Source of the DNA: Octopus vulgaris
Taxonomy: Eukaryota
Assembly (NCBI GenBank): GCA_951406725.2
Contig: OX597820.1
Location: 50,468,001-50,532,000 of the forward strand
Reading direction: 5' to 3'
DNA length: 64,000 nt
Of the stretch, positions 6,722 through 56,925 are shown piece after piece; positions within the stretch are counted from its first letter, which is position 1, and the number at the start of each line of letters is the position of its first letter. The notes below the pieces were generated by a model. The model did no database searches and had not been told where the DNA came from. It saw only the letters and a list, made by a program, of their open reading frames with translations. The translations under genes were made by a program, and so were the position numbers.

Positions 6722-6768
6722 AACATAACGTTTCGGTTGATATAACCTCCAGCTTTCATCAGGTGACT
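6722..6768 (-). ncRNA. Minimal type-I hammerhead ribozyme (canonical C3:G8 core), partly decayed
   Basis: Minus strand: gtcac CTGATGA a agctgg-aggttata-tcaacc GAAAC GTT atgtt; palindromic AACGTT stem III; stems I and II imperfect. Confidence 0.6.
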
Positions 6769-6782
6769 CGAGTTATTTTTCG

Positions 6783-7220
6783 ATCTTCTTCTTCTTCTTC
6801 TTCTTCTTCTTCTTCTTCTTCTTCTTCTTCTTCTTCTTCTTCTTCTTCTTCTTCTTCTTCTTCTTCTTCTTCTTCTTCTTCTTCTTCTTCTTCTTATTCT
6901 GCTGCTGCTGCTTCTTTTTCTTCTTCTCTTTCTTTTTCTTCTTTTTCTTCTTCTTCTTCTTCTTCTTCTTCTTCTTCTTCTTCTCCTCCTGCTCCTCCTC
7001 CTCCTTCGTCATCATCTTCTTCTCCTCCTTCTTCATCATCTACTTCATCATCATCATCTTCTTCATTTTCATCTTCACATTTTTCTTCTTCATCATCATC
7101 ATCATCTTCTTATTCTTCTTCATCATCATCATCATCATCATCATCTTCTTCTTCTTCTTCTTCTTCTTCTTCTTCTTCTTCTTCTTCTTCTTTTTATTAT
7201 TATTATTATTATTATTATTG
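6783..7220. repeat. (TTC)n/(TCA)n/(TTA)n microsatellite array
   Basis: Directly visible. Confidence 0.95.
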
Positions 7221-7221
7221 A

Positions 7222-7297
7222 TCACTGCCTGGAATTGAACTCGGAATCTTGTGGTTAGTAGCCCGCGCTCTTAACCACAACGCCATATGCCCACAGG
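7222..7297 (-). mobile_element. tRNA-derived sequence (SINE head or tRNA retropseudogene) followed by an (AAT)n tail
   Basis: Minus strand gggcatatggcgttgtggttaagagcgcgggctactaaccacaagattccgagttcaattccaggc with A-box-like TGGCGTTGTGG and B-box GTTCAATTCC. Confidence 0.6.
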
Positions 7298-7299
7298 CA

Positions 7300-52208: not shown

Positions 52209-52246
52209 CTAAAATTTTCGTTGATCCTTACAAACTCTTCAATAGT
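52209..52246 (-). ncRNA. Decayed minimal hammerhead-like motif (U3.G8)
   Basis: cta TTGAAGA g tttg-taaggat-caac GAAAA TTT tag; palindromic AAAATTTT. Confidence 0.4.
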
Positions 52247-52389
52247 TGTTGATTCTGTCCATTATTGCTGCTGCGTTCCTTTGTTACAACAGGTGCTACG
52301 GCCATTCGTTGAAATATCCCCGGATGTCTGCGTGAACACAGAGGATTCCCGCTGTAGAACAAGTAGTTATAACCACTCCAACGACCCTC

Positions 52390-54180
52390 GATAGATGAGG
52401 GAAGGACAGCAATAAGTAAAATGAATTTTGGTAGTGCACTTGGAAGAGATGGAGTTTGTGCTGAGGTCTTGAGATTTGGTGGTGATTACATCACACAGGC
52501 CTTTCATGAACTTATTAGTGTAGACTGACAGGAGGGTGCAATTCTTAAGGACAGGTGGAATGCAATTATTCTTCCTCTCTATATAGCAAAAGGAGTCAGA
52601 ATAATGTGTGGTAAATATAAAGGTGTTGCTCCACTATGAGCTGTTGGCAAGGTTCTGGCAAATATTCTTCTTAAGCCTGAATGGGTGCCTCGTAAATGAT
52701 GTCGTATCTGAATCTCAGTGTAGCTTCCAATCTGGTAGAGCGACAATGGATATGATTTTCACAGCAAGACAGATGCAGGAGAAATGCTATGAGTAGAGTA
52801 TGGATCTCGCCCAGCTATTCATGGATTTAACCAGGGCCATTGACACTGTGAAATAGGGTCTTGCTATGGAAAATACTTGGCAAACTTGGATGTCCGGATC
52901 ACTTTCTATCTATAATTCAATCATTGAATGATAGGATGGAGGCTTGAGTCAATGCTGGCGGTGGCATGGCGGGACCCATTCCTGTATAGAATGGTGTCAA
53001 GCAGGGTGATATCCTTGCCCCAACTTTCATTTATTTTTATTTGTTTGCTACTTTTACTCATGCTTTTACTAAGTTTAGATATCTGGGAATCAGGTATCGA
53101 TCTTCTGACTGCCTCTTTAATCTGCGCCGATTTGCCGTCAATTCAAAAGTTTACCAGTCTCTAATACGTGACCTCCCTTATGCAGATGACTGTGATTTAG
53201 TCACTCATACAGTGGATGAGATGCGAATACTTAGGAATCGTGTTTCTGCTGCTTGCAAGGTATTTGGACTCAGCATTAGCGTAGACAAGATTGTTGCAAT
53301 GTCCCAGCTTGCGCCAGGAAATACATTTGTGGATTCAGCTATCTTGGTTGAAGGAAAAATACTCAAAGTGGTAGACAAGTTTTTCTTCCTGGGCAGCAAA
53401 CTCAGCCATTCTTGCTCCCGGGATAATGAATTAGCTTTCAGGTTGCAAACAGTAACTGATTCCTTCCGGTCTCTTGAGTCCCGTGTCTGGTCCCAGCATG
53501 CGATCATAAGGCAAACAAAAATTGCTGTGTACCAGGCATGTGTACTGACATCGCCCTCACCCCTTTAATCATGCGAGACATGGACACTTTACAAACGTCA
53601 TGTAAATGTCCTTGAACGCGTTCATCAGCTATGTCTGAGACACAATCTGTACGTCGGCTGGACCTTAAAAACTTCAGACACACAGGTCCTGAGGAAAGAT
53701 GATATCTTGAGTATATTAGCGATGGTGATCAAGCACCGGTTACGTTGGACTGGATACCTTATTGAAATGAAGAATAGCAAATGCTCTATAGGGAAGTTGT
53801 TAGTGGGTAGAGACCCCGACAGAAACCAAGACTGCGATTTAAGGCCTGTTATATGGGCATGTAATATGCAGGAGACCGACTGGGAGAGCAATTCCTGTCA
53901 TCGCCACAGATGGAAGAGCAGATTAAGGAGGGGGTTGGCACCTTTGAGAGAACACTTATATTGCATGAAGAACTCTCGCGTGCTGCTAATGTAGTGAATG
54001 GGGAAAGCTTGGTTTGTAATGTTTGCAGTCGTGTATGCTTGTCAAGGGCAAGGCTCATTAGCCACCAATGCTAATACTAGTACAAGTACTACTACAGTTG
54101 CAAAATATATGTTAGTCCCGTATAGTACAATGCTCCTAAATGTCAGCAATGGTCTTCCTCGATCACGAGTGGACGGCCAT
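52390..54180 (+). mobile_element. RTE/BovB-like LINE, RT and C-terminal zinc finger, pseudogenised
   Basis: ESQCSFQSGRATMDMIFTARQMQEKC, FMDLTRAIDTV, NGVKQGDILAPT, DLPYADDC, VVDKFFFLGS, CNVCSRVCLSRARLISH. Confidence 0.92.
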
Positions 54181-56204
54181 TATGTATACATTTTTATGTG
54201 TAAATATATAAGTATGTCTATAGTTGTATACAAAATACCACTTATCTGACGTATTTTCAGAGTCAAAAAGTAAAAGAAATATATGCGTGATGATAATATC
54301 TAAGTAAAATTTTCCACGTACGTGTATAAATATTTTCAGATGAGTAGAATATTTTAAACTGGTTTTTATAAGAATGCTGGCTTATAATATTCCAGGTATA
54401 CTTAAGGGTCTTTCCTCTGAGATTAAAAGACATACACATGTCAAATTTTTGTAGGATCTTCTACATGATGTGTGTATATGTATGCATAAGTAATCTTCTT
54501 GTAAACCACAAAGACAATACATTCACAGAGACGTTGCTATTAATTTTCATGCGATATGTATTATATACTTCTCTCTCGATTTACATAACTCTCTATCTTT
54601 TTAAGAAATATACACGCGCAGATTCCTGAAAACACACGCAAACACACATACATACACGCACACACACACCTTCTGATATATATGCATATGTGTGTGTGAT
54701 TTATATTCTTATATGTATATATATATATATATATATATATATATGTGTGTGTGTGTGTGTGTGTGTTGTGTGTGTGTGTGTGTTTGTGTGTGTGTGTGTG
54801 TCTGCACCCATGTTCGTATGCATCCATTTGTGGGAATTTGATTATATAAGAGTGGAAGATAGAGAAGGAAGGAGATTATGAAAAGGACAATGAAAAACAT
54901 TTTAAACTTACTTGAAGATTCAGTTGATAAAGTAAAAAGAAAAAAAAATTGTATATCACTTCTATAGATTATTATTATTATTATTATTATTATTATTATT
55001 ATTATTATTATTATTATTATTATTATTATAAGAAAAACAAAATAGAAAGTGATCGCACGAGAAAGAAAACTATAGAGATACCAAAATATAAATATATAGA
55101 AAATATTATCCAAATGGAGTTTATGTCCTCCCAAACGTTCGCCATTATGGATTCAGTTTTTTCTGATCTTTCTTTTTCTTTGTATGTGTATTCAACATTT
55201 GTTTTTCGTTATTCCATTTTTTTTTTGATGTTTTGTTTATGCAGTGAATATTTCCCCATGTAATGAATGGGAAATCTCCTAGCTAAGAGTAGAGGAATAT
55301 CCTTTATTTTATTTTATAAATGTTGTGTATATACTTTGTTATATCAGATTTTATTTTTCCTAAAAGTGATATTATGATGTTCAGATATTAGAGGATTATC
55401 CGATATTGCTGATCGTATCTTTAGATATAATCGTGAATACGTAAGAAATGTAAATATGACAAGAATACAGAAGTAATATCAATATTATTGTTAATGTTGT
55501 TGTTATTATTATTATTATTATTAATATTATTATTATTATTATTATTATTATTATTATTATTATTATTATTATTATTATTATTATTATTATTTTAATTTTT
55601 TATTATTATTATTGGTGATGGTAACAAAACAAAAATAAATAAGAACAGCAATGCTAATACTAATACAATTACTACTACTACTACAACTAATAAGATGTTT
55701 AAAAAATATCTATATTAATATGGTTGAAAAATACATGAAAAAAATCTGTATGGGATGGCAGTTTTATTCGTGACATACTCAACATCAGCGAGTAGAATAT
55801 TATATGTTTGATGTAAACCGATTTATTTTCGATAAAAGTGAACTTTCTGACTTCATTTTGAACGACCCAGAATGGTGGTTGTTTTTCAATAACAACAGGT
55901 AGCATTGATTTGATTCAACCACAAAGGCAGACAAACGGACCCATGCGTAGTTCGTACAAAGGCAAGCAAATGTTCACCTAATAAAGCACTGGGTACACAA
56001 AATTATACGCACATGTAATCCACAAGCACGAATGGGCAGAATATAAAGAGTCGAACTCACGGTTATAAAATATCTATATACAGGCTCTTACAATTCTTGC
56101 TTGGATTTCCTTTTTAAAGCGACTTGACTATACACACACACACATACACCCCCCACACACGCACACAAACAAAACACACACATATATATATACATATATA
56201 AATA

Positions 56205-56925
56205 CATAAATGGAGGTAAACGCTGGTGTTATTCAAAAGTTTTACTTCCGACATATGTTTCGAAGAAAACATTGGTATTATTCCAGATGAAATAAAATGA
56301 TGTAAAACAATGCTATCCTCTGATCGGGAAAAAAGAGACCAAACACATCAGTAAAACATCTTAACAGAATGTGATGACTGCGTGTGTGATTAAGGAAAGC
56401 TAGCAATTTTTTTACGCCGTTAATAAATATAACGTCAAAGGCAGTTCATAGAAAGAGGAGGAGAAGAAAGAAAGAAATTAGCAGAAGTCTGACAGTGGAG
56501 AGATATAGAGCAATAAGGGAATAGGAATAAAGCTTAAAGGCTTGGAAGTAGATATATGTAGTGGAAGTGAAACGTAAGAAGACAGTTAAAGGTCGAATTT
56601 TATAGAATGGTAGAAATCACTTATAGGAACTAGAAGGTATGTTTTTGCCAATGTTTGCAACGATAAACACGTTTTTTAAACATGTTTACAAGATAATCTC
56701 TGAGAACAGGATGAAATACACTCCATCGTTACAAAGTGAACAGAAAGATTTATCTTTATCATACTGAAATTATTTAGATAGAATATTCAATTCCAAATCA
56801 TATTGTTTAATATGATAAATACAGATATTTCACCAAGACCTGGAATTTCTACTTTTCTAAGTAGGCTGTTAGATCCTTGGTACTTGTGTGAATTTTAGCT
56901 ACCCTGGTAACTATTTATTTATCTC
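56205..56925 (-). mobile_element. Second Neptune-type PLE 3' fragment with inverted tail at its 5' junction
   Basis: Aligns with 18115-18660 (cacttatagga.cta.a.gg.atgttt.tgcca.tg); YDKDKSFCSLCN; 56835-56920 matches 17990-18075 in inverted orientation. Confidence 0.7.

Follow-up and report, generated by a model that had tools for sequence, protein, structure and literature searches.

Hammerhead-like motifs are present at fourteen sites along a stretch of 64,000 nucleotides of Octopus vulgaris DNA (the window, to which all positions refer), in all 14 cases where a sequence-only reading had placed them, and they are probably the 3' ends of about ten Penelope-like families and of one retrozyme-like repeat, with cutting that is likely to be slow, paired and protein-aided. 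At positions 3, 6 and 8 two of these families, H (G3:C8) and J (U6), depart from the published core letters and were filed as variants. Judging from the sequences, it is possible, and we say so tentatively, that G3:C8 and A6U are undescribed natural cores, active (perhaps only with the protein of the element) in families with thousands of recent copies; A6U would then be the commonest intact hammerhead in the genome. The sites form eleven families (A to K, with the same-family pairs 18143/56246, 26928/50259 and 30594/38293), and the features are as follows:

6722..6766, minus strand: family A hammerhead, decayed copy (C3:G8, 9a A, palindrome ACGU)
7221..7293, minus strand: tRNA-like cassette with A-box and B-box-like motifs, 3' untranslated part of family A
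18143..18224, minus strand: family B hammerhead, decayed (C3:G8, long stem II, ACAUAUGU)
18491..18910, minus strand: family B endonuclease remnant with CxxC-E and CxH motifs
19416..19499, minus strand: family I hammerhead, decayed (family C3:G8, long stem II, ACAUAUGU)
22536..22622, minus strand: family C hammerhead, old decayed copy
26928..26966, plus strand: family F hammerhead, decayed second copy (U3:A8, ACCGGU)
30594..30682, plus strand: family D hammerhead (C3:G8, U.U at stem II base, ACGAUCGU)
31559..31893, minus strand: family E, nearly one whole 352-nt circularly permuted self-paired unit
31729..31775, minus strand: family E hammerhead, intact (C3:G8, 6-bp stem I, ACAUGCAUGU)
36601..36636, minus strand: family J hammerhead, A6U core CUGUAGA, damaged GAAA in this copy
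38293..38380, minus strand: family D relative, decayed (G3.G8)
46735..48143, plus strand: family G, 5'-truncated Penelope-like element with RT and GIY-YIG
48275..48313, plus strand: family G hammerhead (U3:A8, 2-bp stem II, one unpaired U before N3, ACCGGU)
49925..50180, plus strand: family H pseudo-LTR stub in (TA)n
49966..50015, plus strand: family H hammerhead, intact, G3:C8 (G3 49973, C8 49978), AAUAUU
50259..50294, minus strand: family F hammerhead, intact (U3:A8, ACCGGU)
52209..52246, minus strand: family K hammerhead, decayed (U3.G8 in the window, U3:A8 in the family, AAUU)
56246..56331, minus strand: family B relative, decayed core

The descriptor used for counting allowed any N3:N8, A6 or U6, a palindromic stem III and an H17 other than G, under strict and medium rules. 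Two intact Watson-Crick motifs were found in the window with the strict rules (49966, G3:C8, and 31729, C3:G8) and a third, at 50259 (U3:A8), with the medium ones, against a strict count of 0 and a medium mean of 0.04 in 150 block-wise dinucleotide shuffles. The excess over shuffled sequence extends to 1.02 Mb of flanking DNA, where matches with a Watson-Crick 3:8 pair and A6 numbered 21 (0.25 in shuffles), and the covariation at 3:8 that had been noticed across families recurs there, in 15 of 24 motif clusters (12 C:G, 2 U:A, 1 G:C). Intact copies occupy only 2–3 of the 14 sites, most of which are decayed when taken as single sequences. The density of one motif per 5 kb given before holds only if decayed stubs are counted, and becomes about one per 21–29 kb for intact motifs. 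All 14 sites sit in genome-wide repeats (227 to 4,163 first-look candidates each in a genome of 2.8 Gb), and in each the commonest form has a type I hammerhead fold where one would be expected. It could be argued that such motifs arise by chance in a genome rich in AT and in repeats, since the descriptor rejects most window copies, non-Watson-Crick matches also turn up at loose settings and an Rfam cmscan of the window gave no hammerhead model among the best 150 of 244 matches (those were microsatellite-driven miRNA matches only, and are uninformative for minimal motifs). Given the shuffles and the family forms this explanation is refuted for the set and as a whole is extremely improbable, although it may hold for weak single motifs such as that of G, with its 2-bp stem II.

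A large ecosystem of ribozymes and retroelements had been proposed; many families are indeed present, but comparable ecosystems have been published for other animals, such as Acropora with >6,000 motifs in 16 families (PMC7229834) and Xenopus with about 9,000 (PMC4209133), and the multiplicity of families, the palindromic stem III, the 9a insertion and U3:A8 are all in print (Cervera 2014, 2020). The motif zoo as such is ordinary for an invertebrate genome. Cervera and de la Pena (2014, PMC4209133) described minimal type I hammerheads in Penelope-like elements, with which the families here share the pseudo-LTR location behind RT and GIY-YIG, a short stem I, the 9a nucleotide, the palindromic stem III, U3:A8 families, many consensus families per genome, a majority of single truncated copies and opposite-strand pairs. 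They differ in that several have a stem II of 55–80 nt, and in that none of the 56 representatives in Fig. S3 of that work has G3:C8 or U6, the cores there being CUGANGA, UUGANAA and one UUGAAGA.

The proposed retroelement origin (Penelope-like or retrozyme) is supported for both kinds. Penelope-like RT/GIY-YIG sequence lies upstream of the motif, which is thereby in pseudo-LTR position, in seven families (A, B, F, G, H, J and K), and the EN+ layout of a telomerase-like RT followed by a C-terminal GIY-YIG was recovered in one ORF in H and in two frames in G. Copies of a family remain alike for no more than a few hundred bases past the motif, and on its upstream side the homology fades gradually; 3' ends are sharp and lie in microsatellites, and 5' ends are ragged or inverted. 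Of 25 loci per family, an inverted 5' duplicate was seen in 11 for A, 10 for B, 3 for C, 14 for D, 5 for E and 13 for I. The endonuclease tree was weak at depth and included two rows that were mislabelled H copies, and pairwise identities were used instead. Linker and cysteine motifs, set against PMC8557442, would tentatively place H and K in the Neptune clade, B in Hydra, and A and J in Penelope/Poseidon; the tree contained no named reference.

The canonical core CUGANGA with C3:G8 and GAAA..UH, in type I order, is the commonest form of families A, B, C, D, E and I. A Penelope-type GIY-YIG endonuclease was found upstream in five of the six long family A copies translated (L466, L467, L470, L471 and L473). 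The tRNA-like cassette of this family is present in 30 of 55 loci, and was not called a tRNA by ARAGORN in 9 loci. The family B endonuclease matched upstream on the same strand in 17 of 25 loci, the one in the window among them; this remnant gave no GIY-YIG Pfam match, and its CxxC-E and CxH motifs have been described for Hydra-clade elements (PMC8557442). No ORF was found in C, D or I (7-kb regions were searched for D), all three with Penelope-type insertion anatomy; the motif at 30594 is the 3' end of an AT-rich family D element of ~2.2 kb. One D and one E locus (L123, L142) do have an endonuclease upstream, in each case part of a neighbouring element. At 22536, which had been listed as C3:G8, the apparent CUGAUGA was created by a 20-nt deletion, and the commonest core of the family is CUGACGA with a longer stem II.

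Variant cores are tied to repeat families, as had been suggested: U3:A8 to F, G and K, G3:C8 to H and A6U to J. The families were also described as unrelated, which fails for F and G (endonucleases 50–60% identical, both with ACCGGU and U3:A8) and for H and K. The endonuclease was found upstream on the same strand in 7 of 25 loci of F, in 24 of 25 of G and in 7 of 25 of K. In the window, the G element gave RVT_1 (E=2.7e-6) and GIY-YIG (E=0.008) matches, both below the curated cut-off, its hammerhead begins ~140 nt past the endonuclease stop, and an inverted copy of its own 3' end lies at about 46600–46739. The motif at 52209 is, as stated before, a degenerate copy, yet its family has U3:A8 in 93 of the first 100 of 4,662 genome matches; the apparent covariation within K (U.G, C:G and U:A among the 25 best matches) was a bias of the decayed window query.

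Family H, a Penelope-like element, is young and carries RT, a CxxC linker and GIY-YIG; locus L292 has a frame of 530 aa with GIY-YIG above the cut-off (E=9e-5), and the endonuclease lies upstream on the same strand in 12 of 30 loci. The window motif has a G at 9a, a 5-bp stem II and a 7-bp stem I. G3:C8 is the majority state (92 of the 100 listed of 7,447 genome pattern matches) and spans copies from ~85% to 100% identical to the youngest subfamily, while loop II varies. In four public runs with four coded organism labels no variant of at least 10% was listed at G3 or C8; these runs consist of contigs and presumed RNA, and no RNA source was listed for expression of H. Older sister copies have C3:G8 (19 matches), with tails 71–88% like those of K, and the endonucleases of H and K are 44–49% identical, the lineage shared by both thus holding all three pairs: G3:C8 in H, U3:A8 in K and C3:G8 in the older sisters. 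These last are diverged relatives and not revertants of H. The mismatch G3.G8 was found in 241 copies from various H subfamilies; that it marks one subfamily on the way from C3:G8 to G3:C8 was rejected, its 16 rows in a tree of 38 (22 of 60 copies were dropped as too short) needing at least four changes.

The motif at 36601 had also been called degenerate, which is true of the damaged copy; the reading missed that the family core itself is CUGUNGA. This J superfamily has 18,970 genome matches, with U6 in 93 of 100, and lies behind a Poseidon-like RT and endonuclease (RVT_1 E=3.8e-9 at locus L285). N7 takes all four letters and H17 varies while U6 is kept, and a U4C sister subfamily has also spread. 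In the flanks the A6U form makes up 14 of 45 intact matches. As this core departs from CUGANGA, standard searches with that pattern miss the superfamily.

Neither G3:C8 nor A6U was found as a natural core in the literature compared, outside which stand Lunse 2017 and Arkhipova 2017. The natural variants of Perreault et al. (2011, PMC3088659) share U3:A8, a 2-bp stem II, U10.1.U11.1 and a change at A6, but in the accessible portion of that paper neither of our two cores appears and its A6 variant is A6C, in one phage, while here each core is fixed in thousands of copies. The Poseidon PAc hammerhead of Anolis (Frangieh et al. 2024, PMC11167929) likewise belongs to a Penelope-like element. According to the accessible portion of that study, its cleavage depends on the protein of the element, copying proceeds mainly from uncut RNA, and an engineered C3G/G8C partly restores cleavage; G3:C8, a laboratory mutant there, is the natural state of family H.

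A competing reading, which we consider rather unlikely, holds that cutting has been lost in the variant cores, A6U in particular, with the fold kept for protein binding, transcription start or priming, or as a passenger. In line with it, lower activity is expected of changes at A6 (natural A6C, <0.1 per minute, PMC3088659), hammerhead mutants leave in vitro insertion unaffected (PMC11167929), elements of the Naiad type spread without a canonical hammerhead (PMC8557442), the predicted cut site lies inside 26 of 30 inserted copies of H and 27 of 30 of J, G3.G8 copies recur and the U4C subfamily has spread. However, each of the two changes at 3:8 in the H/K lineage recreates a Watson-Crick pair, which is relevant only to a catalytic fold, and in J the rest of the core is conserved, with the drift at N7 and H17 that active hammerheads show. 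Among 30 copies each of H, J and A, a small sample, 5' ends did not pile up at the cut site; one H insertion and one J copy, both ambiguous, have a 5' end at or near it.

On the reading that we consider probable, the minimal type I hammerhead of each family would cut slowly, as a pair of motifs and helped by the element's own protein. A single transcript carrying one hammerhead per pseudo-LTR, or a pair of transcripts, would make up a double hammerhead, with palindrome and stem I pairing from one motif to the other, and most RNA would stay uncut when copied. Reverse transcription would start downstream of the motif and end early, leaving short stubs that then decay neutrally, and G3:C8 and A6U would probably be weakened but tolerated cores, kept through several waves of amplification. 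At stake is the role of a hammerhead that in Penelope-like elements cuts poorly, needs protein and is dispensable in one in vitro transposition system. Because young abundant families with canonical, U3:A8, G3:C8 and A6U cores exist side by side, cleavage rate can be compared with copy success. Should both cores cut, the natural core consensus widens, CUGANGA-based censuses undercount and one set of homologous pseudo-LTRs, that of the H/K lineage, documents all three 3:8 pairs; should they be dead, a motif family of ~19,000 copies means that an element can do without cutting and still keep the fold.

Family E is, by its sequence features, a retrozyme-like unit, its circular RNA form being putative. 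It combines a type I hammerhead with a self-paired unit within the 150–450 nt and <45% GC of retrozymes (head-to-tail, here as partial tandems only), and a circular fold of -132.8 kcal/mol (versus -83.7 +/- 4.9). Upstream sequence matches downstream sequence in 14 of 25 E loci (0–3 loci in each other family), and no circularly permuted unit was found in the other ten families. The permuted 352-nt unit, 44% GC, self-pairing, 6-bp stem I and absence of any ORF seen are shared with animal non-LTR retrozymes (PMC7229834), from which E differs in the C.A at the base of stem II in most copies and in that copies of less than two units were found, rather than long arrays: they reach 609 nt, and 13 of 55 loci (some repeating the same insertion) exceed one unit.

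A palindromic stem III, from A15.1 to U16.1, is present in all eleven families. Two of the palindromes first reported, AACGTT and AAAATATTTT, include A14 and H17, the true stems being ACGU at 6722 and AAUAUU at 49966. The same reading suggested that the palindromes may act as family-specific dimerisation codes, which would be selected to prevent cross-talk between co-resident elements. There are seven palindromes, more occur in flanking DNA, and three of the eleven families (H, K and E) have one to themselves; but the other eight families share theirs with another, including A and J with unrelated endonucleases, and in the related F and G ACCGGU is inherited, which makes such codes very unlikely. 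Families sharing a palindrome can form 0–2 cross pairs in stem I, versus 3–7 with themselves. Since a double hammerhead also pairs stem I between motifs, separation follows from ordinary divergence, and any dimer specificity would, on these pairing models, come from stem I. Cofolding of E, H, J and A gave the double-hammerhead pairing as the lowest-energy dimer for E only. Across families stem I has 3–7 bp (G needs one bulged base), and the base of stem II is 9a plus G:C in A, H, J and K, G:C without 9a in B, C and G, U.U in D, C.A in most E and G.U in I.

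Hammerhead-like motifs had been read from the sequence at 14 positions, and at all 14 they are present, in a window of 34% GC that is rich in (TA)n and (TAA)n tracts and whose longer reading frames are transposon remnants. A descriptor for type I motifs (N3 and N8 free, A or U at position 6, 9a optional, stem III palindromic, H17 not G) recovered two intact Watson-Crick motifs at strict settings (49966 and 31729) and three at medium settings (also 50259), the other sites being decayed. The excess over shuffled sequence was borne out, with no strict match in 150 shuffles and a medium mean of 0.04. 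The assembly (2.8 Gb, 227 contigs) was then queried with stretches of 141–241 nt enclosing 11 of these sites, and the best 25–30 loci of each of the resulting families, A to K, were aligned. In every family the complete hammerhead fold is the commonest form of these loci; the three remaining sites are second copies of families B, D and F. The CUGAUGA core read at 22536 (family C) turned out to be the product of a 20-nt deletion. The motif at 52209 (family K) had been called degenerate, which is right for the decayed window copy but not for its family, where 93 of the 100 first-listed of 4,662 exact matches have U3:A8. At 36601 (family J), given the same label, a hammerhead-like motif is indeed present, and its family core is CUGUAGA. 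On the plus strand, at about 6335–6375, a CTGATGA adjoins an (AAT)n tract; the descriptor paired no GAAA with it.

The proposed covariation of the 3:8 pair across families held up in 1.02 Mb of de-duplicated DNA bordering the repeats, which is not a random sample. There the medium descriptor gave 45 matches in 24 clusters. Watson-Crick 3:8 pairs with A6 accounted for 21 matches, against 0.25 in 20 shuffles, and mismatched pairs appeared in five clusters, near the chance expectation of 3.8 matches, from which we conclude that the pair covaries. The available text of PMC4209133 describes U3:A8 in Schistosoma elements, and that of PMC3088659 describes it as natural elsewhere too. At least ten further hammerhead families were seen in the flanks of many loci, with the palindromes ACAAUUGU, ACAGCUGU, ACACGUGU, ACUAAUUAGU, AAUGGCCAUU and AUAU. 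An A6C motif (CUGCCGA, AAUU palindrome), seen twice at locus L049, is possibly another variant family.

Homology between copies ends abruptly a few hundred bases 3' of the motif, in many cases where a microsatellite lies, and fades gradually 5', where many copies of the families carry an inverted duplicate. This sharp 3' end and ragged or inverted 5' end match the insertion pattern of Penelope-like elements drawn in PMC8557442, as far as its accessible part goes. A same-strand endonuclease/RT lies upstream in family G (24 of 25 loci), B (17/25), H (12/30), F and K (7/25 each), in five of the six long family A copies translated, and in family J at three loci (L285, L371, L366). Judged by their motifs, H and K appear to be Neptune-like, B Hydra-like, and A and J Penelope/Poseidon-like. 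For C, D and I the Penelope-type anatomy was seen and no ORF was found; the element of family D (L564-569) is AT-rich, measures about 2.2 kb and shows a Penelope-type inversion but no recognised ORF. The window holds the following pieces:

46735-48143, family G copy, RT and GIY-YIG endonuclease
14149-14430, minus strand, H-like remnant of a Penelope-like endonuclease
56633-56817, minus strand, B-like remnant of a Penelope-like endonuclease
7221-7293, minus strand, tRNA-like cassette of family A
11032-11370, 52990-53994, 58065-59058, 7255-7563 and 5311-5610, jointly Mos1-type HTH, RT fragment, Tc1/mariner transposase pieces and putatively LINE-like fragments that have no Pfam match

The tRNA-like cassette, found in 30 of 55 family A loci (e.g., L462, L466, L473), lies between endonuclease and hammerhead, and several copies start exactly at it. 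Copies bearing it may form a SINE-like subfamily that is driven by Pol III and ends in a hammerhead.

Family E (31729) is of another kind. In 14 of 25 loci the same sequence is found upstream and downstream of the motif. The unit measures 352 nt and the copies are up to 609 nt long; folded as a circle, it has an energy of -132.8 kcal/mol, compared with -83.7 +/- 4.9 for 100 shuffles. It fits the definition of a non-LTR retrozyme in the available portion of PMC7229834.

The idea that the palindromes form a family-specific dimerisation code found no support, there being seven palindromes for 11 families, with A/J, B/I, C/D and F/G (the last two related) each sharing one. The active sites of a double hammerhead would each combine the stem I 5' strand of one motif with the 3' strand of the other, a strand exchange that we infer from the dimer model described in parts of PMC4209133. 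Between palindrome-sharing families only 0–2 stem I pairs form, vs 3–7 within a family, so that ordinary divergence alone would keep them apart.

The phenomenon is real and largely known: publications already describe genomes with many families, palindromes of the dimer type, 9a, U3:A8, U.U at stem II, and retrozymes that reside alongside. Lunse 2017 is said to report very many Penelope-linked hammerhead variants. We found no dedicated study of octopus or cephalopod hammerheads. The point deserving a bench test is the two high-copy core variants, G3:C8 and A6U. Neither was found as a natural form in the literature searched, where G3:C8 occurs only as an engineered form; Lunse 2017, Arkhipova 2017 and supplement 1 of PMC4209133 lay outside this search and may hold them. 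The two papers that came up for A6U deal, to judge by their titles, with other RNAs. Among the 56 representatives in Fig. S3 of PMC4209133 none has either variant.

The G3:C8 core belongs to family H (49966). Searched with a 17-letter pattern that leaves N3 and N8 open, the genome gave 7,447 matches, vs two for the reversed pattern, and 92 of the 100 first-listed matches are G3:C8. The best 40 copies are 98–100% identical over 200 nt and some copies have reading frames of 441 and 530 aa, indicating recent amplification. Older copies, with identity as low as about 85%, also have G3:C8, across changes in loop II. Among the differences listed from four runs with four coded organism labels, none of 10% or more fell at 49973 or 49978. 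A further 19 matches are C3:G8; these are older relatives whose tails are 71–88% like those of K and have a tail motif in common with H. As the endonucleases of H and K are also related (44–49% identity), C:G, U:A and G:C occur within one lineage. Against a clean G3:C8 story count the mismatched copies, 241 G3.G8 vs 20 C3.C8 (12 times commoner), the former polyphyletic and scattered over H subfamilies (L348-353, L374-393). Local amplification of G3.G8 is possible, since the first 100 listed already reach contig C15 and 141 of the 241 lie beyond.

The A6U core belongs to family J (36601), for which a 27-letter pattern leaving N6 and N7 open gave 18,970 genome matches vs none in the control. Among the 100 first-listed, position 6 is U in 93, A in three, C in three and G in one, and N7 is any of the four letters. 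The stems, 9a, GAAA and the ACGU palindrome have the canonical form, with A or U at H17. Of the 45 matches in the flanks, 14 combine C3:G8 with U6, more than any other intact motif, and U6 motifs are invisible to a CUGANGA descriptor. A sister family of J has A6 or U4C. The A6 sister often carries U4C, with core CCGACGA (L074, L107, L124, L177, L397), apparently as a spread subfamily.

The repeat families, their anatomy, their RT/endonuclease linkage and their fixed cores are observed. Building on these, two motifs in the pseudo-LTRs (the element ends holding the hammerhead) of one transcript, or of two transcripts, would pair through palindrome and stem I and would cut slowly. Judged from sequence, weak but real cleavage is the general reading we consider fairly probable, and that the variant cores are dead seems rather unlikely. 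For an Anolis element, the accessible text of PMC11167929 reports an engineered C3G/G8C that is partly active. A6U would be the likelier of the two to be dead, because changes at A6 lower activity (PMC3088659, in the part available). The same Anolis text states that cleavage requires the element's protein and that the main insertion template is uncut RNA. In line with such a template, most copies here that were selected by sequence 3' of the motif extend across the predicted cut site (26/30 in H, 27/30 in J). Their 5' ends, like those of short K copies, often fall a little way upstream of the hammerhead (L414-443, L474-503, L293-304 for short copies of H, J and K) and may mark a fixed point in the pseudo-LTR at which transcripts start.
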